Assembly: GCA_963839295.1 (NCBI GenBank)
Contig: CAWIUK010000015.1
Location: 43,347 to 107,346, forward strand
From: an uncultured Acidobacteriota bacterium
GTDB lineage: Bacteria; Acidobacteriota; Thermoanaerobaculia; UBA5066
Reading direction: 5' to 3'
Length of the DNA stretch: 64,000 nucleotides
Below are positions 3,434-63,172 of the stretch, piece by piece; positions within the stretch are counted from its first letter, which is position 1; each line of letters opens with the position of its first letter. A program made the position numbers and the translations under genes. The notes under the pieces are model-generated. The model did not search any database, had not been told where the DNA came from, and was given only the letters and a program-made list of their open reading frames with translations.

Positions 3434-3446
3434 GCAACGCTCCTCG

Positions 3447-3485
3447 CGCGGTGGTCCCGGGGGCCGCTCAGTTTATAGGAGCGGC
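3447..3485. promoter_or_regulatory. palindromic stem-loop (GGCCGCTC-AGTTTATAG-GAGCGGCC) in a divergent promoter region, a candidate operator
   Basis: 8-bp perfect inverted repeat with an AT-rich 9-nt loop. It lies in the 87-bp gap between divergently transcribed genes (starts at 3433 on the minus strand and 3521 on the plus strand). Confidence 0.3.
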
Positions 3486-5593: not shown

Positions 5594-6412
5594 TCAGGCC
5601 CGGCTGAGAACGAAAAGGAGGAGCCCCGCCGCCACGGCCGCGTTCAGCGATTCCACGCTCCCGCCGAGCGGGAGCGTGAGCCGCCGGTCGAGCGCGGCCT
5701 CGATCCCGGGCGAGATCCCGTGTCCCTCGGAGCCGACGACGAGGACGAGCGGGCGGACCTTCGCGGCCCGGTCGGGCGGCTCTCCGCCGTGGGCTTCGGC
5801 GCCGGCGAGGATGGCGCCGAAGGAGCGCGCCCACGCGATCGCCTCGGGCTGCGCGACGCGGGCCGCGATCGGCACGCGCAGGGCGCTCCCCGCCGACGCG
5901 CGCAGCGCACGGGGCGAGTACGGAAAGGCGCAGCCGGGCGTCGCGACGACGCCGGCGACGCCAAACGCCTCGGCGCAGCGGACGATCGCGCCGACGTTCG
6001 CGGGGTCCTGGATTCCGTCGAGGAGAAGAAAGAGAGAGGACGAAGAAGGGGATTTCTTCGAAGGTGAAGAGAGGGAAGACAGCGTTCGGTGCGGGGGCGG
6101 AGCGAGAGCCGCGATGCCGCGCGTCGACGGGAGATTGGAAAGCCTCTTCAGGACGCGGGGCGAAACCGTCGTTACGCGAGGGGGCGGCGTCGCTCCGCCG
6201 CCTCCCGGCGCTCCTTCCCCTCTTACCCTTCTAAGAAAATCCGCGTTCTCTTCGGACTTCTCATCGATGACGAACATTTCTTCCAGAGGCACGCCCGCGT
6301 CGAGGGCTTCTTCCACCATCCGTCTGCCCTCGAGGAGCATGCGGTCGCCGGCGGCGACCGCGCGGGCGGCCGCGACGATACGCGGGTTGGAGGGGGAGTC
6401 GATCCGGGACAT
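5594..6412 (-). CDS. TrmH/SpoU-family RNA 2'-O-methyltransferase carrying an in-frame repeat unit
   Basis: SpoU blocks LFLLLDGIQDPANVGAIVRCAEAFGV, LVLVVGSEGHGIS, LPLGGSVESLNAAVAAGLLLF. A roughly 65-aa low-complexity segment (SEENADFLRRVRGEG...SSPSKKSPSSSS) is encoded by repeat unit 3. Confidence 0.7.
   Translation of the reverse strand: MSRIDSPSNPRIVAAARAVAAGDRMLLEGRRMVEEALDAGVPLEEMFVIDEKSEENADFLRRVRGEGAPGGGGATPPPRVTTVSPRVLKRLSNLPSTRGIAALAPPPHRTLSSLSSPSKKSPSSSSLFLLLDGIQDPANVGAIVRCAEAFGVAGVVATPGCAFPYSPRALRASAGSALRVPIAARVAQPEAIAWARSFGAILAGAEAHGGEPPDRAAKVRPLVLVVGSEGHGISPGIEAALDRRLTLPLGGSVESLNAAVAAGLLLFVLSRA
6021..6262. repeat. inverted-arm repeat unit 3, inside the trmH-like CDS and in-frame
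   Basis: Forward arm GAGGAGAAGAAAGAGAGAGGACGAAGAAGGGGATTTCTTCGAAGGTGAAGAGAGGGAAGAC at 6021-6080. Core of about 135 bp. Reverse arm CCTCTTACCCTTCTAAGAAAATCCGCGTTCTCTTCGGACTTCTC at 6217-6262. Confidence 0.8.
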
Positions 6413-12270: not shown

Positions 12271-13848
12271 TCAGCCGGGGGGAAACATGCTCGTGAGGAG
12301 GTGCTTCTGCACCTTCCCGAGTGCGTTCCGGGGCAGCTCCGCGACGGCGATGACGTCGCGGGGCTTCTTGTAGTCCGCGAGGTTGGCGGCCGCGAAGGAG
12401 GCGACCTCCGCGCAGGCCGCCGCGGGCTCGCAGCCCGCGGCGAGGACAAGGGCGGCGGCGACGCGCTGGCCCCAAACGCGGTCCTCGACGCCGACGACGG
12501 CCGCGTCCCTCACGGACGGGTGGCGCCGGAGGACGTCCTCGATCTCCCGCGCGGCGATCTTGTAGCCGCCGCTCTTGATGATGTCGACGGACTTCCGGCC
12601 CGCGATCGTGATGTAGCCGTCCGCGCTCCTGCGCGCGACGTCGCCGGTCAGGAACCAGCCGTCGCGGAAAGACGCGGCCGTTTCGGCTTCCCGGCCCCAG
12701 TAGCCGTTCATGATCCCGTCGCTCTTCACGACGATCTCGCCCAGCTCGCCGTCCGCGACGTCGCGCCCCGCGTCGTCGACGATGCGGACGGCGCCGCCCG
12801 GCGCCGGCAGGCCGACGGTGCCGGGCCGGCGCTCGCCGTCGTACGGGTTTGAGAGCGTGAACAGCGTCTCGCTCATCCCGTAGCGCTCGAGGATCGCGTG
12901 CCCCGTCCGCGCGCGGAAGGCCTCGAAGTCCGCCGCGGGCAGGGGCGCGCTGCCGGCGGTGAAGAGGCGCGCCCGCCGCAGGGCCGCGGCGGCCTCCGGG
13001 TGCGCGTCGAGGTGCTCGAGGAGCCGCACGTACATCGTCGGGACGCCCATGAAGACCGTCGCGCCCTCCTCCGCGAAAGCCCGGACCACGCGGGCCGCGT
13101 CGAAGCGCGCCTCGAGGAGGAGCGTCAGGCCGTTCACGAGCATCCCGGCGACGCCGAGGACGAGCCCGTGCACGTGGAAGAGCGGCAGCGCGAGGACGAG
13201 ACGGTCTTCCGGCGTGAAGCGCCACAGGCCCGTCACCGACGCCGTGTTGTCCGCGAGCGCCCTGTACGACAGCGCGACGCCCTTGCTCTTGCCGGTCGTG
13301 CCCGACGTGTAGATGAGCATCGCCACGTCCCCGTCCCGGGGTGCCGTGGCTCGAGCGGGGTCCGAAGAGAGATTCTTCCTGGAAGGTGAAGAGGGGGAGC
13401 CCGCAGCGGCCGCGGACGGCGGTCCCGCCGGGAACGCCTCTCGAAGCGCGATCACGTGCTTCAGATGCTCCGGGCACCTTCCAAGAATCTCTCTTAGAAC
13501 CCCGGTGCATTCTTCATCTTCGCCGCCCACGAGCACCGCCGCCGCCCCCGAGTCCTCGAGGATGTGCCGGGCCTCGTCCGCCTTGTAACGCGTGTTGATC
13601 GGGACGTGGACGACGCCGGACTCCAGGTGGGCGACGAACGCGGCGACCACCTCGGGGCACGTCTCGGCGAAGACGGCGACGCGGTCGCCGCGGCGGATGC
13701 CGAGGGACCTCAGCCTGTCAGCGTAGTGATTCGCGAGACGCTGTATCTCCTCGAACGTGTAAGAGCGCCCGTTCCACACCACGGCCGGATGCGCCGAGCG
13801 GCTCTGCAGGCAACCGAGGAGGCGATCGTGCGCAGCGGCAGTGGTCAT
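12271..13848 (-). CDS. AMP-dependent synthetase/ligase (acyl-CoA synthetase family) carrying an in-frame repeat unit
   Basis: AMP-binding motif [14 protein letters not shown], a C-terminal ...GKVQK block, 525 aa. The most likely start is ATG at 13846-13848 (MTTAAAH); the track start at 13866 is a TTG inside a repeat arm. Confidence 0.8.
   Translation of the reverse strand: MTTAAAHDRLLGCLQSRSAHPAVVWNGRSYTFEEIQRLANHYADRLRSLGIRRGDRVAVFAETCPEVVAAFVAHLESGVVHVPINTRYKADEARHILEDSGAAAVLVGGEDEECTGVLREILGRCPEHLKHVIALREAFPAGPPSAAAAGSPSSPSRKNLSSDPARATAPRDGDVAMLIYTSGTTGKSKGVALSYRALADNTASVTGLWRFTPEDRLVLALPLFHVHGLVLGVAGMLVNGLTLLLEARFDAARVVRAFAEEGATVFMGVPTMYVRLLEHLDAHPEAAAALRRARLFTAGSAPLPAADFEAFRARTGHAILERYGMSETLFTLSNPYDGERRPGTVGLPAPGGAVRIVDDAGRDVADGELGEIVVKSDGIMNGYWGREAETAASFRDGWFLTGDVARRSADGYITIAGRKSVDIIKSGGYKIAAREIEDVLRRHPSVRDAAVVGVEDRVWGQRVAAALVLAAGCEPAAACAEVASFAAANLADYKKPRDVIAVAELPRNALGKVQKHLLTSMFPPG
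13362..13520. repeat. inverted-arm repeat unit 4, inside the acyl-CoA synthetase CDS and in-frame
   Basis: Forward arm CCGAAGAGAGATTCTTCCTGGAAGGTGAAGAGGGGGAG at 13362-13396. Reverse arm CACCTTCCAAGAATCTCTCTTAGAACCCCGGTGCATTCTTCATCTT at 13475-13520. On the coding strand the arms encode GEDEECTGVLREILGRCP and GSPSSPSRKNLSSD. Confidence 0.8.
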
Positions 13849-13849
13849 G

Positions 13850-13896
13850 CCCTCTTCACCTTCCAAGAAAATCTTCTTCCGTTCCGTTCTTCGTCT
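13850..13896. repeat. solo arm filling the whole 48-bp gap between the livF stop and the acyl-CoA synthetase start; it supplies a Shine-Dalgarno-like GGAAGGTGAAGAG 4-7 nt upstream of the ATG
   Basis: CCCTCTTCACCTTCCAAGAAAATCTTCTTCCGTTCCGTTCTTCGTCTC. On the minus strand this reads ...GATTTTCTTGGAAGGTGAAGAGGGC-ATG. Confidence 0.75.
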
Positions 13897-14616
13897 CTAG
13901 ACCGACGCGTACCCGAGGTACCGGTCGCGGACGCCGTGGTCGTTGCGGAGGTCCTCGGCGCGGCCCGAGAGCGTGATCGTGCCCGTCTCCATCACGTACG
14001 CCCGGTCCGCGAGCGCGAGCGCATGCGGGACGTTCTGCTCGACGAGGACGATCGTGACGCCGCGCCCGCGGATGGCCCTGAGCGACGCGAACACCTCCTT
14101 GACGAGGAGAGGGGAGAGGCCGAGGGCGGGCTCGTCGAGGAGGAGGAGGCGCGGCTGCGCCATCAGGCCCCGCCCGATCGCGCACATCTGCTGCTCGCCG
14201 CCCGAGAGCGTGCCCGCCTTCTGGTGGATCCGGCGCTTCAGGACCGGAAACATCGCGAAGACCTCCTCGAGCGTCGCGTCGGCCTTCGCGCGCGCGGCGC
14301 GCGGGTAAGCCCCCATCCGGAGGTTCTCGAGGACCGACATCCCCGGCCAGAGCTGGCGGCCCTCGGGAACGAGGACGAGGCCGCGGGCCGCGAGCGCGTG
14401 CGCCGGCGACCCGCCCACGACGTCGCCTTCGAAGACGACGCGCCCCGCGCGCGGCGCGAGGAGGCCGGCGACGGTCTTGAGCGTCGTGGACTTGCCGGCG
14501 CCGTTCGCGCCGACGAGCGTCACGACCTCGCCTTTCTCGACGGAGAAGGAAAGGCCGCGCACGGCCTGGACGTCGCCGTAGAACACGTCGACCGCTTCGA
14601 CGGAGAGGAGGCTCAC
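13897..14616 (-). CDS. livF: branched-chain amino-acid ABC transporter ATP-binding protein LivF (operon 1)
   Basis: Walker A GANGAGKST, signature LSGGEQQM, Walker B LLLLDEP. The GTG start overlaps the livG stop (GTGA). Confidence 0.85.
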   Translation of the reverse strand: MSLLSVEAVDVFYGDVQAVRGLSFSVEKGEVVTLVGANGAGKSTTLKTVAGLLAPRAGRVVFEGDVVGGSPAHALAARGLVLVPEGRQLWPGMSVLENLRMGAYPRAARAKADATLEEVFAMFPVLKRRIHQKAGTLSGGEQQMCAIGRGLMAQPRLLLLDEPALGLSPLLVKEVFASLRAIRGRGVTIVLVEQNVPHALALADRAYVMETGTITLSGRAEDLRNDHGVRDRYLGYASV

Positions 14617-20164: not shown

Positions 20165-20189
20165 GGTGGTCTCCTGCAGCTCGGAAGTG

Positions 20190-20280
20190 TGTCCGTCTAA
20201 CGATATCGAGTTCAGCGGCGAGAGGGAAGGAGCGCAGCGACTGACGCCGAGTCCGCGACAATGAGGTGTTAGCCGCCGCT
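20190..20280 (-). repeat. attC-like site 1 (about 85-bp family)
   Basis: GTCTAAC at 20195-20201, internal imperfect palindrome, GTTAGCC at 20268-20274. It abuts the TAG stop of the toxin gene. Confidence 0.55.
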
Positions 20281-21393: not shown

Positions 21394-21397
21394 GTTT

Positions 21398-21490
21398 GCG
21401 GGGTCTAACGATATCGAGTTCAGCGGCGAAGAGGAAGGAGCCAAGCGACTGACGATGAGTCCGCTGCAACGAGGGGTTAGGCGGCGCCTA
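21398..21490 (-). repeat. attC-like site 3 (about 85-bp family)
   Basis: GTCTAAC at 21403-21409 through GTTAGGC at 21476-21482. Nearly identical to sites 1 and 4. The TAG stop of the upstream gene overlaps its end. Confidence 0.55.
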
Positions 21491-21967: not shown

Positions 21968-21977
21968 GGCGCTTCTG

Positions 21978-22068
21978 TAGCCGCCTAACGATATCGAGTT
22001 CAGCGGCGAGAAGGAAGGAGCGCAGCGACTGACGCCGAGTCCGCGGCAATGAGGTGTTAGGCGGCTGT
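21978..22068 (-). repeat. attC-like site 4 (about 85-bp family)
   Basis: GCCTAAC at 21983-21989 through GTTAGGC at 22056-22062. Confidence 0.55.
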
Positions 22069-42021: not shown

Positions 42022-42808
42022 CCCACGCCCGCTCGTCCGGATAGCCCGCGGCGCGTGCGGCCGCGCGGAAACGGACGGGGGGCTCGAACGGCGGCTCGTC
42101 CGTGAGGACGATCGTGCCCCAGTGCATCGCGACGAGCGTCGCGGCGCGGAGGTCGCGTCCGGCCGCGACGGCCTCCTCGGGATCGAGGTGGACCGGCCGC
42201 ATGATCGACGCCGGCTCGTACGCGCCGATCGGCAGCAGCGCGGCGTCGAACGGCCCGTGCTCGCGGCCGAGGTCTGAGAAAACCGGTCCGTATCCGGTGT
42301 CACCCGCGAAGTACAGCGAGAGGGACGGCGACTGGATCTTCCACGAGCACCAGAGCGTCGCGTTGCGGTCGAACGGCGTCCGGCCGGAGAAGTGGATGGC
42401 GGGAAGACAGGTAAGCGAGATCGAAGAGGAAGAAGAAGGATTTCTTAGAAGGGTGCCCTCTCCCCAGACCAGCTCCCGGACATCCGAGTAATGCCGCGAC
42501 GCGAAGAACGAACCGAGCCCGGAAGGCACAATGGCTGCCGCCGCCCCTCTTACCTTCGAAGAAATCTCCTCTACGGATCTCGCATCGAGATGGTCGTAAT
42601 GATTGTGGGAAATCAGGACCGCGTCGATGGGCGGCAGCGCGTCGATCGACAGGCCCGCCGGGACGTAGCGCTTCGGGCCGAGGCCGGGGACCGGGCTCGC
42701 GAAGTCGGAGAGGAACGGATCGGTCAGGATCGTGAAGCCGCCGGTGCGGACAAGGAAGCAGGCGTGACCGAGCCATGTGAGGCTCTCGGGGCCGGCGGCG
42801 GCGAGCAT
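41987..42808 (-). CDS. MBL-fold metallo-hydrolase (NAPE-PLD-like, Lactamase_B_2) carrying an in-frame repeat unit
   Basis: LISHNHYDHLD...IVPSGLG...ELVWGEG...LPAIHFSGRT...LWCSW...YFAGDTGY...FGPFDAALLPIGAYEP. The convergent 3' overlap with the hydrolase gene is 35 bp. Confidence 0.7.
   Translation of the reverse strand: MLAAAGPESLTWLGHACFLVRTGGFTILTDPFLSDFASPVPGLGPKRYVPAGLSIDALPPIDAVLISHNHYDHLDARSVEEISSKVRGAAAAIVPSGLGSFFASRHYSDVRELVWGEGTLLRNPSSSSSISLTCLPAIHFSGRTPFDRNATLWCSWKIQSPSLSLYFAGDTGYGPVFSDLGREHGPFDAALLPIGAYEPASIMRPVHLDPEEAVAAGRDLRAATLVAMHWGTIVLTDEPPFEPPVRFRAAARAAGYPDERAWVMRIGETRETR
42403..42578. repeat. inverted-arm repeat unit 5, inside the MBL-fold CDS and in-frame
   Basis: Forward arm GGAAGACAGGTAAGCGAGATCGAAGAGGAAGAAGAAGGATTTCTTAGAAGGGTG at 42403-42456. 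Reverse arm CCCTCTTACCTTCGAAGAAATCTCCTCTACGG at 42545-42576. The arms encode ARSVEEISSKVRG and GTLLRNPSSSSSISL, in loops whose length equals the loops in NAPE-PLD homologues. Confidence 0.8.
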
Positions 42809-44864: not shown

Positions 44865-46595
44865 TCACAGGTGCTTCAGCGCCTCGAGCGCGGGCTCGAG
44901 GCGCTGGCGGCGTCCGAAGAAGTCGGCCCACGGGTCGCGCCTTTTCAGGCGCGCCGCGAAGTTCCCGATCGTGAAGTCCTCGGCGCGGAGCGACGGAGTC
45001 ACCTCGCTCCACGCGAGGGGCGTCGAGACGGGCGCGTGCGGGCGGCGCCGCACCGAGTAGGGCGAGACGACCGTCTGCCCGAAGGCGTTGCGGAACGAGT
45101 CGAGGAAGACGCGCCCCTTTCGCGCCGCGATCCGCATCTCCATCGTGAGGTCCTTCGGCCATGCGGCGGCGAGCCGCGTCCCGAGCGTCTTCGCGAACCA
45201 CGTGACGGCCTCGGTGCCCGGGCCGCGCACGATCGGGACGAAGACGTGGAGGCCCTTTCCGCCGGAGGTCTTCACGTACGAGACGAGCTCGAGGGCGTCG
45301 AGGGCCTGCTTGACCTTCAGCGCCGCGGAGGCGGCGTCGGAGATCAGGCCAGAGTCGGGGTCGAGGTCGAAGCAGACCCAGTCGGGCCTGTCGAGGTCGT
45401 CGGCGCGGCTGCCCCAGACGTGGACGGCGATGCAGCCGAGGTTCGCGAGGGCGAGCTGCGTCTCGAGCGCACCGCCCACGACCGTGTTCGTGATCTTGCG
45501 TTCCTCTCCGTGGCGCACGGCGACCGTCGGCGTCCCGGGAGGCATGCTGCCGGGCTTTTCCTTCTGGTAGAAGCACTCTCCACCGAGGCCGTCCGGGCAG
45601 CGCTCGAGAGAGAGCGGCCGGTCCTCGACCCACGGACGCAGCCGCTCGAAGACGCCCGCGTAGAACGCGACGAGATCGCCCTTCGTCCATCCCTCCTCGG
45701 GCCAGAAGACCTTGTCCGGGTTGGAGACGGGCACGGGGAAGACGCGGGAAGAAGACGAAGAGGGACGGGGGGATTTCCTGGAAGGTGAAGAGGGCGGATC
45801 ATCCGCGGCTGCGCGCGGCGGCGACACAATGCGCGCCGGCGTCGCCTTCGCCCTCTTACCATTCGAAGAGATCTTCGGTTTCTCCTCGGACCCTGAATTT
45901 CGAGGCCGCGAGTGCCATACGGCCGGGGAGTCTTTCTTCTTTCGCTCGAGGAGTTTCGGGTTCGCGAGGAGCTTCTCGACCTCGGCGACCGGGTCGCCCG
46001 TGGAGGCCTTCTCGACGTCGCCGCCCTCGTCGATCGCGATCTGCGTCAGGAGGCGGTTCGACGCGACCGATCGCGGGCGCGTGCCGGCGACGTCCTCGTC
46101 CGAGGCGAAGTCGTCGCGGTGCTTGATGAGGAGCCACGCCGGCTTCGCCGAGCCGCCCCAGCCCTTCGTGCGAACGAGGACCCACGAGCCCTTCAGCTTC
46201 TCGCCGTGGAGCGTGAACTTGAGGTCGCCTTTCCCGAGTGCGGCGTCGACGTCCGGCGACTCGGGCGTCCACGTCCCGCGGTCCCAGACCATCACCGTGC
46301 CGCCGCCGTACTCCTCGGCCGGGATGATCCCCTCGAAATCCGCGTACTCGAGCGGGTGGTCCTCCACGTGGGAGGCCATCCTCCTGACCGCCGGGTCGAG
46401 GGACGGGCCCTTCGGCACCGCCCACGAGAGGAGGACGCCGTTCCATTCGAGCCGGAAGTCGTAATGGAGCGCGGTCGCCCGGTGCTTCTGGACGACGTAC
46501 AGGAGGCCGCGCCGCCGGCTCTTCGGTTTCGCCGCGCCCGGCGGCTCGGGCGTGACGGCGAACCGGCGTTTCCGGCGGTATTCGTCGAGCGGCAT
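44865..46595 (-). CDS. ligD: LigD-type 3'-phosphoesterase (PE) plus polymerase/primase domain protein, with no ligase domain
   Basis: PE domain DEYRRKRRF..TPEP...VVQKHRATALHYDFRLEWNGVLLSWAVPKGPS. Pol domain CFYQKE...VCFDLDPDSG...SGGKGLHVFVPI. The low-complexity interdomain linker carries repeat unit 6. Confidence 0.8.
   Translation of the reverse strand: MPLDEYRRKRRFAVTPEPPGAAKPKSRRRGLLYVVQKHRATALHYDFRLEWNGVLLSWAVPKGPSLDPAVRRMASHVEDHPLEYADFEGIIPAEEYGGGTVMVWDRGTWTPESPDVDAALGKGDLKFTLHGEKLKGSWVLVRTKGWGGSAKPAWLLIKHRDDFASDEDVAGTRPRSVASNRLLTQIAIDEGGDVEKASTGDPVAEVEKLLANPKLLERKKKDSPAVWHSRPRNSGSEEKPKISSNGKRAKATPARIVSPPRAAADDPPSSPSRKSPRPSSSSSRVFPVPVSNPDKVFWPEEGWTKGDLVAFYAGVFERLRPWVEDRPLSLERCPDGLGGECFYQKEKPGSMPPGTPTVAVRHGEERKITNTVVGGALETQLALANLGCIAVHVWGSRADDLDRPDWVCFDLDPDSGLISDAASAALKVKQALDALELVSYVKTSGGKGLHVFVPIVRGPGTEAVTWFAKTLGTRLAAAWPKDLTMEMRIAARKGRVFLDSFRNAFGQTVVSPYSVRRRPHAPVSTPLAWSEVTPSLRAEDFTIGNFAARLKRRDPWADFFGRRQRLEPALEALKHL
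45748..45890. repeat. inverted-arm repeat unit 6, inside the ligD interdomain linker and in-frame
   Basis: Forward arm GAAGAAGACGAAGAGGGACGGGGGGATTTCCTGGAAGGTGAAGAGGGCGG at 45748-45797. Reverse arm CCCTCTTACCATTCGAAGAGATCTTCGGTTTCTCCTCGG at 45851-45890. Confidence 0.8.
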
Positions 46596-51699: not shown

Positions 51700-53316
51700 A
51701 TGAGCACAGCGGCACCCGCGGAATCCGGGAAAAGGGTTATCTCCTCAGCCGAGGAACGGCGCGTCATCGTCGCGTCGTCGGTCGGCACCGTCTTCGAGTG
51801 GTACGACTTCTACCTCTACGCGACCCTCGCCCCGTTCTTCGCGACCCTCTTCTTCCCGAAGGGGAACGCGACGGCGGCCCTCCTCTCCGCCTTCGTCACC
51901 TACGCGGCGGGCTTCCTCGTCCGTCCGTTCGGCGCCCTGATCTTCGGCCGCGTCGGCGACCTCGTCGGACGGAAGTACACGTTCCTCGTGACGATCGCCG
52001 TCATGGGCGGCGCGACCGCAGCCGTCGGCTTCCTTCCGACGTTCGCCCAGGTCGGATGGTTCGCGCCCGCGATTCTCGTCCTCCTGCGCCTCCTGCAGGG
52101 CCTCGCCCTCGGCGGCGAATACGGCGGCGCCGCGACGTACGTCGCCGAGCACGCCCCGGACCACCGCCGCGGCTACGCGACGAGCTGGATCCAGACGACG
52201 GCCACCGTCGGCTTCTTCATGGCCCTCATCGTCATCTACGTCAGCCGCGCGTCGATCTCCGCGGCCGACTTCGCGTCGTGGGGATGGCGCATCCCGTTCA
52301 TCCTCTCTCTCGTTCTTCTCGCGATCTCCATCTACATCCGTCTCAAGCTGCAGGAGTCGCCGATCTTCCAGCGCCTGAAGGCGCAGGGGAAGCGCTCGAA
52401 GTCGCCCATCAAGGACAGCTTCTTCAAGTACCCGAACAACAAGTACGCGTTCCTCGCGCTGTTCGGCGCGACGGCGGGCCAAGGCGTCGTCTGGTACACG
52501 GGCCAGTTCTACGCCCTCTTCTTCCTGACGATCACGCTCAAGATGGACTGGCAGACGGCGTATACGCTCATCGCGCTGTCCCTGCTTCTCGGGACGGGGT
52601 TCTTCATCGTGTTCGGCGCCCTCTCGGACAAGATCGGACGCCTGAAGATCATCCTTTTCGGCTGCGCGATCGCGGCCGTCACGTATATCCCGCTCTTCAA
52701 GGGCCTCACCCACTACGCGAACCCGTCCCTCGAGAAGTACCAGGACGCGACGCCCGTTTCGATCGCGGGGACGAACTGCGAGATGCACATCTTCGTGACG
52801 CCGTTCACGAAGTTCTCGGCGTGCGACAAGGCCCAGGACTTCATGTCGAAGCAGGGGCTGTCCTTCACGACTCTCCCGCCGCAGGGAGACGACGTCGTGA
52901 TCAAGGTCGGCAGCGTCGAGATCAAGGGCTACGACGAGGCGAAGCTCAAGGAGGCCATGAAGACGACGGGCTACCCGAGCCCGGCGTTCAAGAAGGACGA
53001 GATGAACTTCGGGATGGTTCTCCTCATCCTCTTCATCATGGTCATCTACGTCACGATGGTTTACGGGCCGATCGCGGCGTTCCTCGTCGAGCTGTTCCCG
53101 GCGAACATCCGGTACACGTCGATGTCGCTGCCCTACCACATCGGCAACGGGTGGTTCGGCGGCATGCTCCCGCTGATCGCGACGGCCTGGGTCGCCGCGT
53201 CCGGCAACATCTACCAGGGCCTCTGGTACCCGATCATCGTCTCCGTCATCACGGTCGTCGTCGGCGGCCTGTTCCTGCGCGAGACGAAGGACGTCAAGAT
53301 CCACGAAGAGGTCTGA
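51700..53316 (+). CDS. MFS transporter, metabolite:H+ symporter (MHS, ProP/KgtP-like) with a long inserted hydrophilic loop
   Basis: VGTVFEWYDFYLY...GRVGDLVGRK MHS signature. An extra roughly 90-aa soluble segment lies between TM8 and TM9. Confidence 0.8.
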   Translation: MSTAAPAESGKRVISSAEERRVIVASSVGTVFEWYDFYLYATLAPFFATLFFPKGNATAALLSAFVTYAAGFLVRPFGALIFGRVGDLVGRKYTFLVTIAVMGGATAAVGFLPTFAQVGWFAPAILVLLRLLQGLALGGEYGGAATYVAEHAPDHRRGYATSWIQTTATVGFFMALIVIYVSRASISAADFASWGWRIPFILSLVLLAISIYIRLKLQESPIFQRLKAQGKRSKSPIKDSFFKYPNNKYAFLALFGATAGQGVVWYTGQFYALFFLTITLKMDWQTAYTLIALSLLLGTGFFIVFGALSDKIGRLKIILFGCAIAAVTYIPLFKGLTHYANPSLEKYQDATPVSIAGTNCEMHIFVTPFTKFSACDKAQDFMSKQGLSFTTLPPQGDDVVIKVGSVEIKGYDEAKLKEAMKTTGYPSPAFKKDEMNFGMVLLILFIMVIYVTMVYGPIAAFLVELFPANIRYTSMSLPYHIGNGWFGGMLPLIATAWVAASGNIYQGLWYPIIVSVITVVVGGLFLRETKDVKIHEEV

Positions 53317-53350
53317 AGAAGACGAAGAGAAGAGTTCCTTAGAAGGTGGT
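53316..53350. repeat. solo forward arm starting on the last base of the transporter stop codon
   Basis: (TG)AAGAAGACGAAGAGAAGAGTTCCTTAGAAGGTGGT, followed directly by a terminator hairpin. Confidence 0.7.
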
Positions 53351-53392
53351 ACGGGCCGGGCGGGTCTTTCCGCCCGGCCTTTTCTTTTGCGC
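53351..53392 (+). terminator. rho-independent terminator
   Basis: GGGCCGGGCGGG-TCTTTC-CGCCCGGCC followed by TTTTCTTTTG. Confidence 0.7.
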
Positions 53393-55077: not shown

Positions 55078-56604
55078 ATGGCTCCGTCCATTCCCGTCCA
55101 CGGCAACTGGATTGCCGGCAAGCACGTTCCCGCCCGATCGGGCCGCACCTTCGAAAACCGCAACCCCGCCGACGTGACCGACCTCATCGGCCGTTTCGCC
55201 GAATCGGACGAGCGCGACGTCCGAGACGCCGTGGATGCCGCGTCGGCGGCGTACGAGAGCTGGCGCCTCGTCCCTGGCCCCCAGCGCGGCGAGATCCTCT
55301 ACCGGCTCGGCGAAATCCTGCGCGACCGCAAGGAACAGTACGCGCGCGACATGACGCGCGAGATGGGCAAGGTCCTGAAGGAGGCCCGCGGCGACGTGCA
55401 GGAGGCCATCGACATGGCCTTCCTCATGGGCGGCGAGGGCCGCCGCCTGCACGGCCAGACGACGCCCTCCGAGCTCCCAAACAAGTTCGCGATGTCCGTG
55501 CGCGCGCCGATCGGCGTCTGCGCCTTCATCACGCCCTGGAACTTCCCGATGGCGATCCCGGCGTGGAAGTCCACGGCCGCGCTCGTGTGCGGGAACACGG
55601 TCGTCATCAAGCCCGCGACGGACACGCCGCTCTCGGTCGTGAACTTCGCGAAGGCGCTCGAGGACGCGGGCCTCCCGCCCGGCGTCTTCAACGTCGTCAC
55701 GGGCTCCGGCTCGAAGGTGGGGAACCCGCTCCTCAAGGACCCGCGCGTGAAGGTCGTCTCGTTCACCGGATCGACGTCGGTCGGACGGGCGATCAACGAG
55801 GCCTGCGCGCCGTCGTTCAAGCACGTGCACCTCGAGATGGGCGGGAAGAACCCGATCATCGTGATGGACGACGCGAACCTCGAGCTCGCGGTCGACGGCG
55901 CGATCTGGGGCGCGTTCGGGACGAGCGGCCAGCGCTGCACGGCTTCGTCGCGCCTCCTCGTCCACCGCAAGGTCGTCAAGAAGTTCACCGCGATGCTCGC
56001 CGAGCGCGCGGCGGCGCTCAAGGTCGGCAGCGGGCTCGACGAGAAGAACGAGATGGGGCCGGCGATCAACGAGAGCCAGCTCGACACCGTCCTCGACTAC
56101 ATCTCGATCGGCAAGGACGAGGGCGCGAAAATCGTCGCGGGCGGCAGGCGCCTCACGGGCAAGGGCCACGACAGGGGCTGGTTCGTCGCGCCCACCGTCT
56201 TCGGGGACGGCGACCGGCGGATGCGAATCGCGCGCGAGGAGATCTTCGGCGCGGTCACGGTCGTCGTGCCGATCTCGTCCCTCGAGGAGGCGATCGACAT
56301 CTCCAACGAATCGGAGTACGGGCTTTCCTCGGCCATCTTCACGCAGGACATCAACAAGGCGTTCACGGCGATGCGCGACCTCGAGGCCGGCATCTTCTAC
56401 GTGAACCTCCCGACGATCGGCGCCGAGACGCACCTGCCGTTCGGCGGAACGAAGCAGACCGGCAACGGGCATCGCGAGGCGGGGCTCGCCGCGCTGGACG
56501 TCTTCAGCGAGTGGAAGTCGATCTACGTCGATTACTCCGGGACGATCCAGAAGGCCCAGATCGACGTGCCCGCCGGCGAGGCCGCCGCGAAGAAGAAGAG
56601 ATAG
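55078..56604 (+). CDS. NAD(P)-dependent aldehyde dehydrogenase
   Basis: LEMGGKNP (catalytic Glu), [15 protein letters not shown] (catalytic Cys), EEIFGAV. 508 aa. Confidence 0.85.
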
Positions 56605-56606
56605 CC

Positions 56607-56676
56607 GCAGAGAAGAACCGGGGATTTCTTGGAAGGTGAAGAGACCGGCGCGGTTCCTCGTGAGGCCCGCGCCGGC
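56607..56676. repeat. solo forward arm plus GC hairpin filling the gap between the aldehyde-dehydrogenase stop and the convergent aminotransferase stop
   Basis: AGAGAAGAACCGGGGATTTCTTGGAAGGTGAAGAG at about 56609-56643, then ACCGGCGCGG-TTCCTCGTGAGGC-CCGCGCCGGC. Confidence 0.7.
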
Positions 56677-57908
56677 TAGGCGAGGCCGCGCGCCTTTCGG
56701 TAAGCCGGAAGCGCCGCGGCCAGGATGTCGATCGCCGCCCTCAGATCCTCTTCCTTGAGGACGTAGGCGATCCGCACCTCGTCCTTGCCGAGGCCCGGCG
56801 TCACGTAGAAGCCGCTCGCCGGCGCCACCATGACGGTCTTGCCGTCCTTCTGGAAGTCCGTGAGCAGCCACGCGGCGAAGTCGTCGCTGTCCGTGATCGG
56901 GAGGCGCGCGACGAGGTAGAACGCGCCCTCGGGCTTCCTCAGGAAGACCCCCGGGATGCCCGACAGGCCCGCGAAGAGCGTGTCCCGCCGCTTCTGGTAC
57001 TCCGTCACCACGCCGCGGTAGTAGTCGGGGCCGAGGGCCGCGGCCGCGGGCGCGATGAACTGCGCGAGGCCGGGAGGGGAGAGACGCCCCTGCGCCATCC
57101 GGTTCGTCGCGGCCGCGAGCTCCTCGTTGCGGGTGACGAGGGCGCCGAGGCGGATCCCGCAGGCCGAGAACCTCTTCGACAGCGAGTCGACGACCACGAC
57201 CTCGTGCTCGAAGCCGGCGAGGGAGAGCGCGCTCTCGGACACGCGGCCGTCGTAGAGGAACTCGCGGTAGACCTCGTCGCACACGAAGAAGAGTCCGTGG
57301 TCGCGGCAGAACTCCGCGACGAGGCGGATCTCGTCCTTCGTGTAGACCGTCCCGGTCGGGTTGTTCGGGTTGCAGAGGAGGACGACGCGGGTCTTCGGGG
57401 TCAGGGCCTTCTCCCACTCGACCCGGCCGGGCAGGTGGAAGCCGTCGCCTCCGTGCGTCACGATGGGCTTGAGCGTGAGCCCCGCCATCGCCGCGAAGGA
57501 GCGGTAGTTCGTGTAGAGAGGCTCGACGGTCAGGATCTCGCCGCCCGGGTCCGAGCAGGCCATGAACGCGAAGAGCAGCGCCTCGCTGCCTCCGGTCGTC
57601 GCGAGGATCTGCCCAGGCTCCAGCGCGACGCCCATCCGCGCGTAGTACGTCCGGAGGAACTCGAGGTACTCCGGCGTGCCGTTCGACGGCGAGTACGCGT
57701 AGACCTTGTCCTTGAGCTCGAGGAGCCGGCGCCGCATCGGTTCGGGCGTCTCGAGGTCGGGCTGTCCGATGTTCAGGTGCAGGACGTTCACGCCGCGGGC
57801 TCTCGCGTCGTTCGCCAGCGGCATCAGCTTGCGGATGGGGGAGGCGGGCATTGCGAGGCCGCGTTCGGAGACTTGGGCGGCCGTCCGGATCGTGCTCATG
57901 CGCGTCAC
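56676..57908 (-). CDS. class I/II pyridoxal-phosphate-dependent aminotransferase
   Basis: NPNNPTG and the SLSKRFSACGIRLGA PLP-lysine region. 410 aa. Confidence 0.8.
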   Translation of the reverse strand: MTRMSTIRTAAQVSERGLAMPASPIRKLMPLANDARARGVNVLHLNIGQPDLETPEPMRRRLLELKDKVYAYSPSNGTPEYLEFLRTYYARMGVALEPGQILATTGGSEALLFAFMACSDPGGEILTVEPLYTNYRSFAAMAGLTLKPIVTHGGDGFHLPGRVEWEKALTPKTRVVLLCNPNNPTGTVYTKDEIRLVAEFCRDHGLFFVCDEVYREFLYDGRVSESALSLAGFEHEVVVVDSLSKRFSACGIRLGALVTRNEELAAATNRMAQGRLSPPGLAQFIAPAAAALGPDYYRGVVTEYQKRRDTLFAGLSGIPGVFLRKPEGAFYLVARLPITDSDDFAAWLLTDFQKDGKTVMVAPASGFYVTPGLGKDEVRIAYVLKEEDLRAAIDILAAALPAYRKARGLA

Positions 57909-58912
57909 ATTAGCAAACGCGCGGGGTCGCCGAGTCCGGCGGCCGCGAGCAGGCCGGCCATGTCAGACGGGACCGGCGCCGTGAACGTCATCGGCTCGCC
58001 CGAGAGAGGGTGCCGGATCCCGAGCCGCCACGCGTGCAGGGCCTGACGCGGGAACGACTTGCACGCCTCCTGCAGCGCCTCGTCCTTCAGGCCCTTCCAG
58101 CGCGGCGAGCCGTAGACCGGGTCGCCGACGATGGGCAGGTTCAGGGCCTTGAGGTGCACGCGGATCTGGTGCGTGCGGCCCGTGACAAGCTTGCATTTCA
58201 AAAGGCTTAGGCCCGCAAGATCGCCGGAAGACTCGGAAAGAATTTCATAGAAGGTGGTCGAGGGCCGCCCCTCGGTCTTCGAGACGGCCATGCGCTTGCG
58301 GTCCTTGGGGTCGCGCAGGATGCCGATTTCTATCTTTCCCTTGCGGACAGGCGGGTGCCCGTAGACGACCGCCAGATATTCCTTCTCTAAGAATCTCTCT
58401 TTCATCGCCCGCCCAAGCACCGACATCGCACGCTCGGTCTTCGCGATGATGAGCACCCCGGACGTGTCCTTGTCGAGCCGGTGGACGAGGCCAGGGCGGT
58501 CCGCGGGGCCGGCCCAGTCCTTCGAGCGGTGGAGGAGCGCGTTCACGAGCGTCCCGTCCCAATGGCCGACGGCGGGGTGGACGACGAGCCCCGGCGGCTT
58601 GTCGAGGACGAGAATTTCGGAGTCTTCGAAGATGATCGAGAGGGGGATGTCCTGGGCGGCGAGGGAAGCTCGAGGCGGGGGAGGAGGCGGGAGGACGATT
58701 TCGATGACGTCTCCTTTCTTCACCTTCTCAGAGACTTTCTTCGGTCTCCTTCCCCCGATCGAAACCCATCCCCCTTCGATCCACTCCTGGATCTTCGTGC
58801 GGGAGGCCTCCGGCAGGTCCGTCAGGTGCCGCAGGAGGACATGGTCGAGACGCTCGCCGACGTCGCCCCGGTCGGCGCGGATCGCGCGGGCCGGCCGCGG
58901 CGCGTCGCTCAC
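57905..58912 (-). CDS. rluD: 23S rRNA pseudouridine synthase RluD (RluA family, with S4 domain)
   Basis: GTG start at 58910-58912. S4 domain (KVKKGDVIEIV), HRLDKDTSGVL, GRTHQIRVH. It is the C-terminal 335 aa of the artefactually extended ORF 57905..59488. Confidence 0.8.
   Translation of the reverse strand: MSDAPRPARAIRADRGDVGERLDHVLLRHLTDLPEASRTKIQEWIEGGWVSIGGRRPKKVSEKVKKGDVIEIVLPPPPPPRASLAAQDIPLSIIFEDSEILVLDKPPGLVVHPAVGHWDGTLVNALLHRSKDWAGPADRPGLVHRLDKDTSGVLIIAKTERAMSVLGRAMKERFLEKEYLAVVYGHPPVRKGKIEIGILRDPKDRKRMAVSKTEGRPSTTFYEILSESSGDLAGLSLLKCKLVTGRTHQIRVHLKALNLPIVGDPVYGSPRWKGLKDEALQEACKSFPRQALHAWRLGIRHPLSGEPMTFTAPVPSDMAGLLAAAGLGDPARLLM
58226..58405. repeat. arm-like pair inside rluD (weaker, and superimposed on conserved residues)
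   Basis: GGAAGACTCGGAAAGAATTTCATAGAAGGTGGTCGAG at 58226-58262 and ATTCCTTCTCTAAGAATCTCTCTTTCAT at 58378-58405. They encode the conserved TTFYEILSESS and KERFLEKEYL using TAT, GAA, ATT, CTT, TTA and AGA codons. Confidence 0.45.
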
Positions 58913-60205: not shown

Positions 60206-63172
60206 CTAACCGCCGACGACCGCACGGCAGCGGGCGCAGAGCCCGTCTTCGCCCGGCTCGACGTCCTTGCGCACCTGCCAGCACCGAGGGCACTTGGCGC
60301 CCACGGCGGGGCGGGCGAGGACGCCTTCGACGCCCGAATCCCGCACGACGGACGCCACTGCCAGGACCTCGGCGAGTTTTTCTTCTGAAAGGGAAAGAAG
60401 GGCGAGCGCTTCGTCGAGCCCGGCGCCGCGCCCGACGACGGCCTCGGCCTGCGCCGCGGACCCGACCTTGTTCTCGCGACGCAGCGGCTCGAGGGATTGC
60501 AGGAACTCCGCCCGGAGCGCGAGGACTCGTCCCCACGCCTCTCTTTCATTCGCGGAAATCTCCCGAGTCTTGAGGTCGCTCCAGCTCTTCAGGAAGAGCG
60601 CGGCCGGATCCGCCGCGTTCCCCGGCAGCGACTCGAAGATCTCCTCTGCCGTGAACGGGCAGATCGGAGAGAGGGCGACCGCGATCGTCTCCACGAGCTT
60701 CCAGGCGGCCGTCTGGGCCGAGCGGCGGACGGGGTCGCCCGGCGCGAGGACGTAGAAGGCGTCCTTGCGGACGTCGCACCAGAACGCGGAGAGGTCGGTC
60801 GTGACGAGGTCGAGGAGGCGGCGCGCCACCGCGTGGAACTCGTAGCGTCCGTAGGCGTCGCGCGCCTCGGCCGCGAAACGCGCCGCGGCGTCGAGGACCC
60901 AGCGCTCGAGCGGCTCGAGCTTCGCGTCCGGCACCGCGTCCTTCGCGGGCTCGAAGTCGAAGAGGTTCGAGAGGAGGAAGCGGGCCGTGTTCCGGATCTT
61001 GCGGTACGCCTCGGCCGTCCGCTGGAGGATCTCCTTCGAGAGCGGGTCGTCGTTCGTGTAGTCGAGCGACGCAACCCAGAGGCGGATGACGTCGGCACCC
61101 TCCGTCTTCAGGAGGTCCTGCGGCTCGATCGTGTTCCCGAGCGACTTCGACATCTTCCGGCCGTCGCCCGCGACGACGAACCCGTGAGTCAGCACGACGT
61201 CGTACGGGGCGCGGTCCGTGAGCGCGACCGAGGTCAGGAGCGACGACTGGAACCAGCCGCGGTGCTGGTCGTGGCCCTCGAGGTACATCACGGGCACCGG
61301 CGGCTGCGCCGTGTACGGGTCCGCGAGGCCGTAGTCGCCCGAGCGCAGGACCGCCGCATGCGACACGCCGGAGTCGAACCAGACGTCGAGGATGTCCTTC
61401 AGCTTCTCGAAGTTCGTCCCGCCGCAGAGGGAACACGAGGCCGAAGAGGAAGACGAAGAGGGAGAAGAAGATCTTCCTAGAAAGTAAGAGGGAGGGAAAG
61501 CGTCGTCGTACCAGGCGTTCGCTCCGTGCTCGCGGAACGCCTCTCTTACCCTTTCAAAGAAATCCTCTCTTTCTTTCTTTTCGTTCTCTCCGACGTTGCC
61601 CTCGACTCTTGGGAAATGGCTGACGATCCCCCTCTCTTTGCAGTCCACGCAGCGAAGAAACGTGATCGGCGAGCCCCAGCGGCGCTGCCGGGAGATGGTC
61701 CATTCGAGGCGGTTGTCCACCATCGCGCCGATGCGGTTCTCGCTGTACGACGGGATCCACTCCACGCGGCCGCGGATCTCGGCCATCGCGCGGTCGCGGA
61801 GGGCCCCGAGGTCGATGAACCACTGGTGCGTCGCCCGGAAGATGACCGGGTTCTTGCAGCGCCAGCAGTGGGGGTAGGAGTGGGGCGAAGATTTCTGCGA
61901 GAGGAGGACGGAGGTTCCGGCGCGTCCGTCCCGCAGGGCCTCGAGGACCGCGAGGTTCGCGTCCTCGGCTTCGCTTCGCGGCGAAACGACCCTTTTTCCT
62001 CGAAGGAATTCCGGGGCATTCACGTCGTAGGAGCCGCCCTCGTCCACCGGGCAGAGCGCCGGATCGTCGACCTTGAACCCCGCGCGCCGGACGACCTCGT
62101 AGTCGTCGCGGCCATGCCCGGGCGCGGTGTGGACGAGGCCGGTGCCGTCCGTCGTCGAGACGTGGTCGCCGAGGAGGAAGCCGAAATTGTCGTAGGGATC
62201 GGACGCGAAGGGGCGGGCGTAGCGCAAGGCCGGCAAGGCCCCGGCGATCGCCTCGCCGCTTTTCTTGGAATGGGGAAGAGGGTGTGCGTCGCGCCAGCCG
62301 AGCGCGGCCGTCACCTGCGGGACGAGCGATTCGGCGACGAGGTAGGCGGCGCCCGGCTCTGATTCCCTTCTCAGAAGAACGTATTCGATCTTCGGGCCCA
62401 GCGCGATGGCACGGTTCGCAGGCAGGGTCCACGGGGTTGTCGTCCAGATGACGGCGTAGAGTTGCCGCACGTCGCTCGACTGAGTGAGAGCGCCCCACAC
62501 ACCCTTCAAAGAATCTTCTCTTAGGGGCATCGCCACGTAGATCGACCAGTCCGTCTTGTCCTCGTACTCGATCTCCGCTTCGGCGAGCGCCGTGCGGTCG
62601 TGGACGCACCAGAGGACGGCCTTGAAGCCGAAGGAGACGAGGCCCTTCTCGACGAACCGCCCGAACGCCCGCGCGATCTCGGACTGGTACGAGAAATCCA
62701 TCGTCCGGTACGGCGCCTTCCAGGCGCCGAGGACGCCGAGGCGCATGAAGTCGGTGCGCTGGACGTCGATCCACTTCTCGGCCGAGGCACGGCAGGCGTC
62801 GCGGATCGCGACGTCCGACATCCCGCGCTTCTTCGGGCCGAGCTCCTTGTCGACCTTGAGCTCGATCGGAAGGCCGTGGCAGTCCCAGCCGGGCACGTAC
62901 GGCGCGTCGAAGCCGGCGAGCGTCCTGGAACGGACGACGAGATCCTTCAGGATCTTGTTCATCGCCGTCCCCATGTGGATACGCCCGTTCGCGTACGGCG
63001 GACCGTCGTGGAGGAGGAATCCGGGGGCGCCCTGCCGTGCGGCGCGGATGCGGCCGTAGAGATCGCCCTCCTGCCAACGCGCGAGGCGCGCGGGCTCCCG
63101 TCTCGGGAGGTCCGCCTTCATGGGGAACCCCGTCTTCGGGAGGAGGAGCGTGGATTTCCAGTCGCGGCCCAT
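60206..63172 (-). CDS. ileS: isoleucine--tRNA ligase (type 1, C-terminal Zn finger) carrying in-frame repeat arms
   Basis: [12 protein letters not shown] (HIGH region), KMSKS, C-terminal CPRCW...CARC. 988 aa. Confidence 0.9.
61443..61600. repeat. inverted-arm repeat unit 7, inside ileS and in-frame
   Basis: Forward arm GAAGAGGAAGACGAAGAGGGAGAAGAAGATCTTCCTAGAAAGTAAGAGGGAGGGAAAG at 61443-61500. Reverse arm CTCTCTTACCCTTTCAAAGAAATCCTCTCTTTCTTTCTTTTCGTTCTCTCC at 61543-61600. The arms encode [17 protein letters not shown] and [15 protein letters not shown]. Confidence 0.8.
62258..62525. repeat. inverted-arm repeat unit 8 inside ileS (about 240-bp spacing), with a further arm-like segment at about 62361-62385
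   Basis: CTTTTCTTGGAATGGGGAAGAGGGTG at 62258-62283 and CACCCTTCAAAGAATCTTCTCTTAGGGG at 62499-62526. Confidence 0.5.

Follow-up and report, generated by a model that had tools for sequence, protein, structure and literature searches.

The gene rluD (57905-58912, minus strand) lies in a 64,000-nt stretch of DNA (hereafter the window; contig CAWIUK010000015.1, positions 43,347 to 107,346), which related rluD loci place in the uncultured Acidobacteriota, class Thermoanaerobaculia. It encodes 23S rRNA pseudouridine synthase D: the product contains a PseudoU_synth_2 domain (Pfam, E = 6.8e-32) and an S4 domain, and it matches the structures of E. coli RluD with E = 5e-62. The GTG start of rluD overlaps the TGA stop of the upstream gene lgt in the sequence GTGA at 58909-58912, and this overlap suggests translational coupling of the two genes. 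An earlier note on this DNA had proposed that the arms of a repeat found across the window are written over conserved residues of rluD and other proteins with codons that are rare in this genome, and so arise in place rather than only by insertion. This stood for the arms of rluD and for most arms in ileS, AMMECR1 and a hydrolase gene; it did not stand for outer low-complexity tracts, which add 3-17 residues.

The GC content of the window is about 70%, and 92.6% of the codons in its 40 curated open reading frames (ORFs) end in G or C. In the same ORFs TTA makes up 0.1% of leucine codons, AGA 3.6% of arginine, TAT 6.7% of tyrosine, AAA 7.2% of lysine, GAA 17.7% of glutamate, ATT 3.7% of isoleucine and CTT 4.4% of leucine codons. 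In sliding windows along rluD the G+C fraction at third codon positions (GC3) was 0.87-1.0 across most of the gene and dropped to 0.53-0.67 at three places only (58790-58690, 58420-58380 and 58270-58210). In these patches AGA, TTA, TAT, GAA, ATT and CTT spell degenerate copies of the window-wide repeat. The reverse complement of 58379-58405 is AAAGAGAGATTCTTAGAGAAGGAATAT, translated as KERFLEKEY, and that of 58232-58258 is ACCACCTTCTATGAAATTCTTTCCGAG, translated as TTFYEILSE.

The repeat was defined from overrepresented k-mers and an approximate search of the window. Its pyrimidine-strand consensus is CCCTCTTCACCTTCNAAGAAAATCTTCTCTTCGG, followed by a (TCTTCN)n tract. A first hidden Markov model (HMM), built from nine clear copies, gave nine matches in the window with E < 2e-5 as well as weaker ones; after iteration the best-kept positions were CTCTT..CCT.TC.AAGAAA.TC. 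Conservation extends over about 28-32 nt, variable bases being interspersed with the conserved ones, and there is no near-invariant core of 9-12 nt. The repeat unit is a clade-specific motif about 30-45 nt long, the copies of which are degenerate and have a fixed layout: a purine-strand arm (...GATTTCTTNGAAGGTGAAGAGGG), a spacer and a pyrimidine-strand arm. As the spacers have no sequence in common between loci, and inside genes are conserved host coding sequence, the copies are not a uniform element apart from the two arms. A uniform mobile element was rejected, both the repeat search and direct reading having found no shared interior. No description of this repeat was found in the literature on Thermoanaerobaculia or Acidobacteria.

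Two head-to-head pairs of arms are present in rluD, namely the two patches flagged by the earlier note (pair 2) and two more arms upstream (pair 1), all on the minus strand. In pair 2, arm A (58226-58264) is of the pyrimidine type on the sense strand (CCCTCGACCACCTTCTATGAAATTCTTTCCGAGTCTTCC) and encodes PSTTFYEILSESS; the HMM matches it at 58238-58257 with E = 0.14. Arm B (58376-58405) is the purine-type arm over KERFLEKEY given above. The spacer between them (58265-58375) is conserved RluD coding sequence of high GC3, LAVVYGHPP...KTEGRPS, and is ordinary host coding DNA, not carried in by an element. In pair 1, arm C (58604-58646) is pyrimidine-type on the sense strand over PLSIIFEDSEIL, and arm D (58711-58756), which is purine-type over GGRRPKKVSEKVKKG, falls in the S4 domain; arm D has 7 mismatches to the 24-mer and an HMM E-value of 1.3.

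On alignment with E. coli RluD both segments of pair 2 are gapless, KERFLEKEYLAVV aligning to QRREITREYEAVA and TTFYEIL to VTHYRIM. This agrees with what had been claimed for KERFLEKEYL and TTFYEILSE, although the E. coli strings then quoted are not the real ones. A 4-residue insertion relative to E. coli RluD is found directly after EILSES.

Among the related loci, HMM matches to the motif were found only in L001-L004 and L006, where RluD is 77-88% identical to that of the window; L005 is 65% identical and L007 and L008 are 56-57% identical, and the outgroup loci among L005-L015 gave no match. In a codon alignment of five clade genomes and three outgroups the residues and the length are the same at the rluD arms, the clade using AGA/TTA/GAA/TAT where the outgroups use CGC/CTC/GAG/TAC. 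At arm B all six clade genomes, the window included, read AAR GAR AGA TYC YTN GAR AAG GAR TAT, with AGA and TAT kept in 6/6. Where outgroups share these conserved Arg, Lys, Glu and Tyr residues, they encode them as CGC/CGG, AAG, GAG and TAC, with CGT also seen for the arginine. The amino acid at position 4 of this arm is Phe, Ser or Leu, encoded by TTC, TCC or CTC, and the nucleotide pattern is therefore better kept than the amino acid. At arm A the clade has TAT GAA ATY CTY TCC GAA TCT, compared with TAC GAG CGA TGG GGC GAG in L005; the rare TAT, GAA and ATT/ATC codons are kept in five related genomes and absent from the outgroups. Arm C has GAA..GAA ATT in the clade against GAG..CAC CTC in the outgroups, and arm D has no indel relative to the outgroups, which have NGAVTAKPSARVAQG in GC-rich codons. 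Outside the motif clade, 26 more orthologues (GC3 0.77 or higher) have the conserved arginine as CGN and never as AGA, and the tyrosine is TAC in 21 of them. Rare codons at the same positions of motif-free orthologues, which the earlier note had named as a finding that would speak against it, were thus not the pattern seen, the same residues being encoded there mostly by common codons.

The dependence of the motif on codon choice was confirmed by synonymous recoding. Scored as summed bits with two HMMs, neither of which was trained on rluD, the real gene reached 14.9 and 20.5, and this beat 499-500 of 500 recodings drawn from genome codon usage and 499-500 of 500 permutations of the gene's own synonymous codons. 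With the single best motif match as the score, the real gene beat 496-500 of 500 synonymous variants. Together with the GC3 dips and the codon shares, these tests uphold the claim that rare codons reproduce the arm motif in rluD.

Peptide composition was also considered. In nine-codon windows with at least four Lys, Glu or Phe, 5.1% of codons ended in A or T outside the arms (349 windows) compared with 38.8% in the arms (arm intervals being partly defined from clusters of such codons), so that equally AT-rich codon choice at other Lys/Glu/Phe-rich positions, the other finding named as adverse, was not seen either. Lys, Glu and Phe codons ended in A or T in 46/111 cases in arms and 136/1822 elsewhere, arginine was encoded as AGR in 59% of cases in arms against 8% elsewhere, and across rluD, ileS and neighbouring genes A or T occupied 40% of third positions in arms but 5.9% elsewhere. 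Point substitutions made the motif, bringing in rare synonymous codons and amino-acid replacements that are tolerated, and left the length the same or nearly so. The excess of A/T-ending codons in arms and the common codons of motif-free orthologues support the claim that nucleotide-level pressure overrides codon usage at the arms, and an in-place origin of the arms at the nucleotide level is very probable.

Nearly all in-gene clusters of A/T-ending codons in the window are arms; the genes concerned are AMMECR1, SpoU/TrmH, acyl-CoA synthetase, a metallo-β-lactamase (MBL) hydrolase, LigD, rluD and ileS. The ileS gene (60206-63172, minus strand) has at least four arm groups, at 60368-60405/60530-60570, 61440-61492/61539-61590, 61964-62026 and 62250-62283/62355-62392/62490-62530. 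Five of its arms are equal in length to the outgroup L005 or differ by one codon; for example, VLLRRESEP, with Arg-Arg as AGA AGG, corresponds to VLARRASEP in L005, with CGG CGG. In the pair at 61.5 kb the inner cores lie on conserved residues (one aligns to DETIEHVSNLF) and the spacer encodes the conserved FREHGANAW, while the outer low-complexity tracts add 17 and 11 residues relative to solved IleRS and vary in length between species. The claim that DFFERVRE of ileS aligns without a gap holds against solved IleRS, but 17 extra residues stand just upstream.

In the ileS pyrimidine arm the outer (TCTTCN)n tract (61427-61507) encodes poly-Ser and differs by up to about 40 nt among species; it behaves like a slippage-prone microsatellite in an essential gene. 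Compared with the window and the remaining relatives, L002 and L004 have indels of 1-2 nt that interrupt the ileS frame (about 5.6-8.7 kb of each locus), and in L004 the translation is out of frame over the order of 100 residues. Both metagenome-assembled genomes come from the same MFD sample series, and the breaks may reflect indel errors made in assembly or sequencing, not pseudogenes.

Two further genes were compared with solved or known proteins. The NAPE-PLD-like MBL hydrolase gene contains an arm pair at 42413-42586 (minus strand, HMM scan), and its loop lengths had been stated to be identical to those of human NAPE-PLD (4qn9); one arm is indeed gapless, but the other adds 3 residues. 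In AMMECR1 one arm of the purine type (4188-4228) and three of the pyrimidine type (4321-4362, 4414-4440 and 4523-4568) lie within 4188-4568 on the plus strand. The pyrimidine arms align on conserved residues of PH0010; codons 3-16, which the earlier note had named, are outside the alignable region.

The A/T-richness of the arms persists in the five related genomes, the genes of which otherwise have a GC3 of about 0.8-0.9. Third positions that are A or T in the window are still A or T in orthologues in 54-63% of cases in arms against 25-29% elsewhere, and sites that are G or C in the window are A or T in orthologues in 17-25% of cases in arms against 4-12% elsewhere. Locus-specific arm variants are common to orthologues (e.g. 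TCTTACTTTCTA in ileS), which points to vertical inheritance, not continuous homogenisation. An exact 19-mer scan of metagenomes found the motif on at least 120 contigs, and about 85 of the matches listed were high-GC contigs from soil, peat or wetland. Viral carriers of the motif were rejected, the two matches, of about 40% GC, being due to chance.

A census of arms scoring at least 8 bits in 645 kb of clade DNA gave 208 arms, compared with 4 in a reversed-sequence control. Neighbouring arms no more than 400 nt apart were head-to-head in 54 of 66 pairs, tail-to-tail in 3 and in the same direction in 9. The centre-to-centre distance had a median of 107 nt and an interquartile range of 81-148 nt, with 3/48 values below 69 nt, so that centres of paired arms are typically about 70-190 nt apart; no 3-nt phasing of the spacing was seen. 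By GC3-based ORF calls, which are approximate, 83 of 183 arms (about 45%) were inside called ORFs and 36% outside, ORFs being 73% of the DNA. The copies in ORFs were purine-sense in 37 cases and pyrimidine-sense in 46. It had been suggested that only one or two frames of each arm lack stop codons; placement is not limited by this, as coding arms were found in all three frames and on either coding strand, with variants that remove the stops (GGTGA changed to GGGTA, GGTAA or TGC, and the central TAA to GAA, TAT, GTA or CAA). Placement is independent of reading frame and coding strand, and the DNA between the arms is whatever was there before.

The relation between the two arms of a pair was then considered. 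The complementarity score averaged 26.7 within pairs and 25.6 between loci, and pairing specific to each locus, or local template switching, is therefore rejected. It is the family consensus, not the partner, that each arm matches, and in only 1 of 16 pairs do the partners have matching bases at the variable central position. An anti-correlation between partners is partly an ascertainment artefact, the loci having been picked by an exact 19-mer, and is not relied on, the unselected central base excepted. Among six orthologues no covariation was detected (RNAalifold covariation term +0.62; 332 of 500 shuffles reached the observed pairing), a comparison of limited power. Arm-arm duplexes were more stable in the sense transcript in 14 cases and in the antisense transcript in 12 (p = 0.48). 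Selection on the sense-strand transcript was rejected, as there is no sense/antisense asymmetry.

The absence of covariation, the about equal use of purine and pyrimidine sense, the lack of extra complementarity between partners and the lack of a sense/antisense stability bias all argue for reading of the motif on duplex DNA. The explanation that we favour, at somewhat less than even odds, is that the arms are a clade-specific signal that evolved in place, each arm being recognised on duplex DNA by a lineage-specific factor that engages two facing arms. Each arm would then serve as a sequence-specific recognition site, and a distance of about 70-190 bp would separate the centres of the two arms engaged. 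The motif would be a chromosome-level signal comparable to the repetitive extragenic palindromic (REP) elements and bacterial interspersed mosaic elements (BIMEs) or to HIP1; it could occupy any position at which the encoded peptide permits it, and would be maintained by selection. From the sequence, a protein-binding site, which the earlier note had offered as its alternative, is the most plausible candidate role for an arm.

Several observations weigh against this explanation, or against the strength of the data behind it. No candidate binding protein was identified, and the centre-to-centre distances show no helical phasing (p = 0.33), which looping on the same face of the helix would predict. 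Arms are clumped in particular genes, and there are none between 14 and 41.8 kb although the genes there look native by composition. As single strands the arms can still pair, in stems of 15-17 bp (median), and z is below -2 for the folds of 28 of 51 pairs, so that a hairpin role keeps some probability. Taken one by one, the rluD arms score weakly in the window-wide HMM scan (E = 0.14 for A and 1.3 for D, with the KERFLEKEY arm unreported), so the case for rluD rests on the combined evidence. The arm intervals used for the counts of codon endings, of A/T in orthologues and of identity were partly defined from clusters of A/T-ending codons. Lastly, identity between species is lower in arms at all codon positions (0.54-0.63 against 0.63-0.78 at third positions), which implies that arms occupy less constrained parts of proteins. 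The constraint is on motif-likeness and A/T content, not on exact sequence, and this pattern fits a drive process too.

An element acting at the level of RNA, in which the purine arm pairs with the downstream pyrimidine arm in the transcript and closes a loop of 50-170 nt, would account directly for the inverted orientation, as this is what a hairpin needs, and roles in mRNA processing or stability, in termination or Rho control, or in masking of a Shine-Dalgarno-like GGAAGGUGA by an anti-Shine-Dalgarno-like CACCUUCC can be proposed for it. Predicted folds, both minimum-energy and centroid, bring the arms together in rluD, ileS, the copy at 2.2 kb and nearly all of the 51 pairs (median z about -2), some spacers are of only 6-18 nt, and intergenic copies flank GC-rich hairpins, one of them directly against a canonical terminator. 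The purine arm also contains GGAAGGTGA, which in one copy (arm 13849-13898) is 7 nt before an ATG and is a plausible ribosome-binding site. As a general role, however, a ribosome-binding-site or 5′-leader cassette was rejected, since a start codon and an ORF are suitably placed for only 1 of 155 arms, and no known RNA family was found in the window with Rfam. There was no 16S gene among 200 loci, and so no 16S 3′ end with which to compare the proposed anti-Shine-Dalgarno mimicry. The two coding examples examined singly are not unusually stable (z = +0.5 for rluD pair 2 and -0.2 for the ileS 61.5 kb pair), and the results on covariation, partner complementarity, the usually mismatched central base and the missing sense-over-antisense bias, which G-U pairing would create, also speak against a hairpin. 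An RNA element is therefore rather unlikely. Drive without cellular function, by motif-biased uptake of DNA resembling that at uptake signal sequences and DNA uptake sequences (USS/DUS) or by repair or gene conversion biased toward the consensus, with protein-coding constraints merely filtering where arms persist, is to be doubted a little further. It fits arms made in place at less conserved residues, as for USS (PMC2817400), exact sequence that drifts while motif-likeness lasts, outer tracts that grow and shrink like slippage-prone repeats, and a distribution like that of USS/DUS, with about 45% of arms in ORFs and enrichment outside them. But uptake bias leaves the obligate head-to-head pairing and the lower spacing limit of about 70 nt unexplained; USS have cores of 9-12 nt and preferred codons in coding DNA (PMC2817400), while the arms are about 30 nt long and need the rarest codons. 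Large native-looking stretches without arms, and locus-specific variants common to orthologues, which imply vertical inheritance rather than ongoing homogenisation, are equally awkward for drive. The proposal of the earlier note that the motif spread in the manner of USS/DUS is, as stated, not supported on the same grounds: that model does not predict obligate head-to-head pairs, has too short a core and favours preferred codons (PMC2817400).

Site-specific inversion, in which one recombinase flips the segment between the arms at many invertons in and between genes, draws on the single inverted-repeat consensus, on pairs that flank segments of 50-170 nt inside genes and on a geometry resembling that of described intragenic invertons (10.1101/2023.03.11.532203). 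In simulated inversions 7 of 9 coding pairs stayed stop-free, but this differs little from the roughly 57% that random segments of equal length would be expected to give. Inversion-compatible reading frames, as a signature, were rejected as indistinguishable from random. Every rluD and ileS pair has the same intact orientation in six genomes (consensus assemblies), some spacers are too short to invert, and flipping segments of essential ileS or rluD would destroy the protein; inversion is thus very improbable. The same low standing is given to insertion of a mobile element, akin to MITEs (miniature inverted-repeat transposable elements) or Rickettsia palindromic elements, and to chance clusters of A/T-rich codons unrelated to the repeat. 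Residues added by outer tracts (17 and 11 in ileS, 3 in the MBL hydrolase and 4 in rluD) and a LigD copy in a domain linker, where inserted DNA could fit, are what insertion would give, and the weak HMM scores of the rluD arms would suit insertion or chance. All four rluD arms and five ileS arms are nevertheless equal in length to outgroup sequence, and the DNA between arms is conserved host coding sequence that is different at every locus; for rluD the insertion explanation is effectively refuted. Chance is rejected by codon permutation and by the Lys/Glu/Phe-rich controls, of which only 5% of codons end in A or T. A further route, which seems distinctly improbable without being as remote as inversion or insertion, is spread by overwriting: a templated short-patch process might transfer arm sequence onto coding DNA already similar to it, by ectopic conversion, for instance, or by annealing of arm-derived single strands at the replication fork. 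If true, arms would be written in pairs into conserved genes, and the repeat would be multiplying by a route that is not described for interspersed elements of bacteria.

The signal that we favour was compared with known systems. REP-type elements show vertical inheritance and conservation at orthologous sites, and host proteins, gyrase and IHF among them, bind to them. Like the arms, REP, BIME and REPIN units are short, interspersed and hairpin-capable and occur in inverted pairs; unlike them, they are extragenic with short characteristic linkers, while about 45% of arms are in ORFs, arms enclose a native spacer of 50-170 nt or longer, and they arise by substitution. No transposase was found among 35 window proteins scanned with Pfam; the search for a REP-associated tyrosine transposase was confined to the window. 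Rickettsia palindromic elements, the subject of Ogata et al. in 2000, are reportedly insertions that add 30-50 residues and share internal sequence. With these and MITEs the arms have in common that a repeat family is translated in several frames within functional, conserved proteins; the difference is between insertions with a shared interior and, in rluD, a gain of 0 to 4 residues around an interior of host sequence.

USS have cores of 9-12 nt, and in coding DNA the frames with preferred codons are favoured (PMC2817400). USS/DUS resemble the arms as genome-wide motifs built in place in coding DNA, in several frames and with about half of the copies in ORFs (PMC2817400), and they too alter peptides at weakly conserved positions. 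They differ in being near-invariant over 9-12 nt, in acting singly and in either orientation, and in using preferred codons, whereas the arms are degenerate over about 30 nt, form head-to-head pairs and use the rarest codons. HIP1 (GCGATCGC) of cyanobacteria is hyper-abundant and apparently selected within and between ORFs, and a function in chromosome structure has been proposed for it (PMC5861425). It is like the arms in being conserved in and between ORFs with no known peptide or RNA role, but it is an 8-nt perfect palindrome that fits the host composition, and the arms are long, asymmetric, paired and foreign to a 70% GC genome. In the mitochondrial genes of Nematomorpha inverted repeats cover conserved coding sequence on both arms (PMC6649704), and there, as here, protein function coexists with a DNA-level repeat. 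Those palindromes are long, perfect and locus-specific, whereas the arms, which are imperfect, conform to a genome-wide consensus and not to one another. None of USS/DUS, REP/BIME/REPIN, Rickettsia palindromic elements or MITEs, HIP1 and the Nematomorpha palindromes fits in full.

The arms thus sit between known classes, with short codon-fitting motifs (USS/DUS, HIP1) on one side and true insertions (REP, MITE, Rickettsia palindromic elements) on the other. Conserved residues of essential genes, rluD and ileS among them, have been overlaid with a long motif (about 30 nt) of foreign composition, and as the motif is held across species against a GC3 of about 93%, a strong force must act on the nucleic acid and not on the protein. 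The repeat offers an entry point into the chromosome- or transcript-level organisation of Thermoanaerobaculia, an abundant uncultured soil lineage. A practical consequence is that arms create rare-codon patches and Ser/Glu/Lys-rich peptides, which could mislead gene callers, detectors of horizontal transfer and analyses of codon adaptation.

The remaining copies in the window are in and beside other genes. The best canonical pyrimidine arm (13849-13898, plus strand) has no mismatches and an HMM E-value of 9.6e-9; its complement directly precedes the ATG of the minus-strand acyl-CoA synthetase gene (12271-13848), which itself contains an arm pair at 13353-13512 (13353-13397 and 13472-13512). 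A pair at 2222-2370 (2222-2262 and 2311-2370), with a GC-rich spacer of 48 nt, lies just 3′ of the minus-strand gene 2372-3472 (stop codon at 2372-2374) and folds into a long stem (z = -2.4). The SpoU/TrmH methyltransferase gene has a pair at 6032-6260 (6032-6075 and 6217-6260, minus strand), and the HMM scan found a pair at 45750-45892 (minus strand) in the LigD linker between the phosphoesterase and polymerase domains. Two single arms on the plus strand, also found by the HMM scan, overlap stop codons. One, of the purine type (53307-53356), does so at the end of a major facilitator superfamily (MFS) transporter gene. It is directly followed by a canonical intrinsic terminator (53353-53380), which has a 12-bp GC-rich stem and then TTTTCTTTT, and the arm stands in for the upstream A-rich tract of a bidirectional terminator. 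The other (56597-56646) runs across the stop (TAG, 56602-56604) of a plus-strand aldehyde dehydrogenase gene into the gap before a convergent aminotransferase gene, beside a GC-rich hairpin, and has orthologous copies in L002 and L004.

In metagenomic relatives an arm covers LKVKSGVMVGLGE of lipoyl synthase, and the in-place pattern recurs in Ser/Thr kinase paralogues, where an arm pair covers VAIKVLP-EDFLEGEE...FSFEEI. The Ser/Thr kinase genes in L097, L103, L138 and L164 have the same arm pair over VAIKVLP...RFEREA...LNHPNIA, with centres 91 nt apart. These arms were either inherited by the paralogues or gained repeatedly at a pre-adapted peptide.

The arm-free stretch of about 27 kb (14000-41800) carries genes for branched-chain amino-acid ABC transporters, hydrogenase subunits, MFS transporters, a PAS-GGDEF-EAL protein and UbiE. 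Its GC3 is typical or higher (0.92-0.98) except at about 19.6-24.3 kb, where GC is lower (0.62-0.65) and small ORFs, including a RelE/ParE-like toxin-antitoxin pair, are found. Neither the ORFs listed for 19.6-24.3 kb nor the window proteins covered by the Pfam scan included an integrase. This part of the window also contains three direct repeats of 88 nt (20188-20275, 21396-21483 and 21976-22063), which are 80-93% identical and lie 1208 and 580 nt apart. They start with ..GCCTAAC or GTCTAAC and end with GTTAGSC, and in the copy that was folded (21976-22066) the ends pair in a terminal stem. Judged by these features the repeats look like integron attC sites, and the 19.6-24.3 kb stretch is probably a cassette array.

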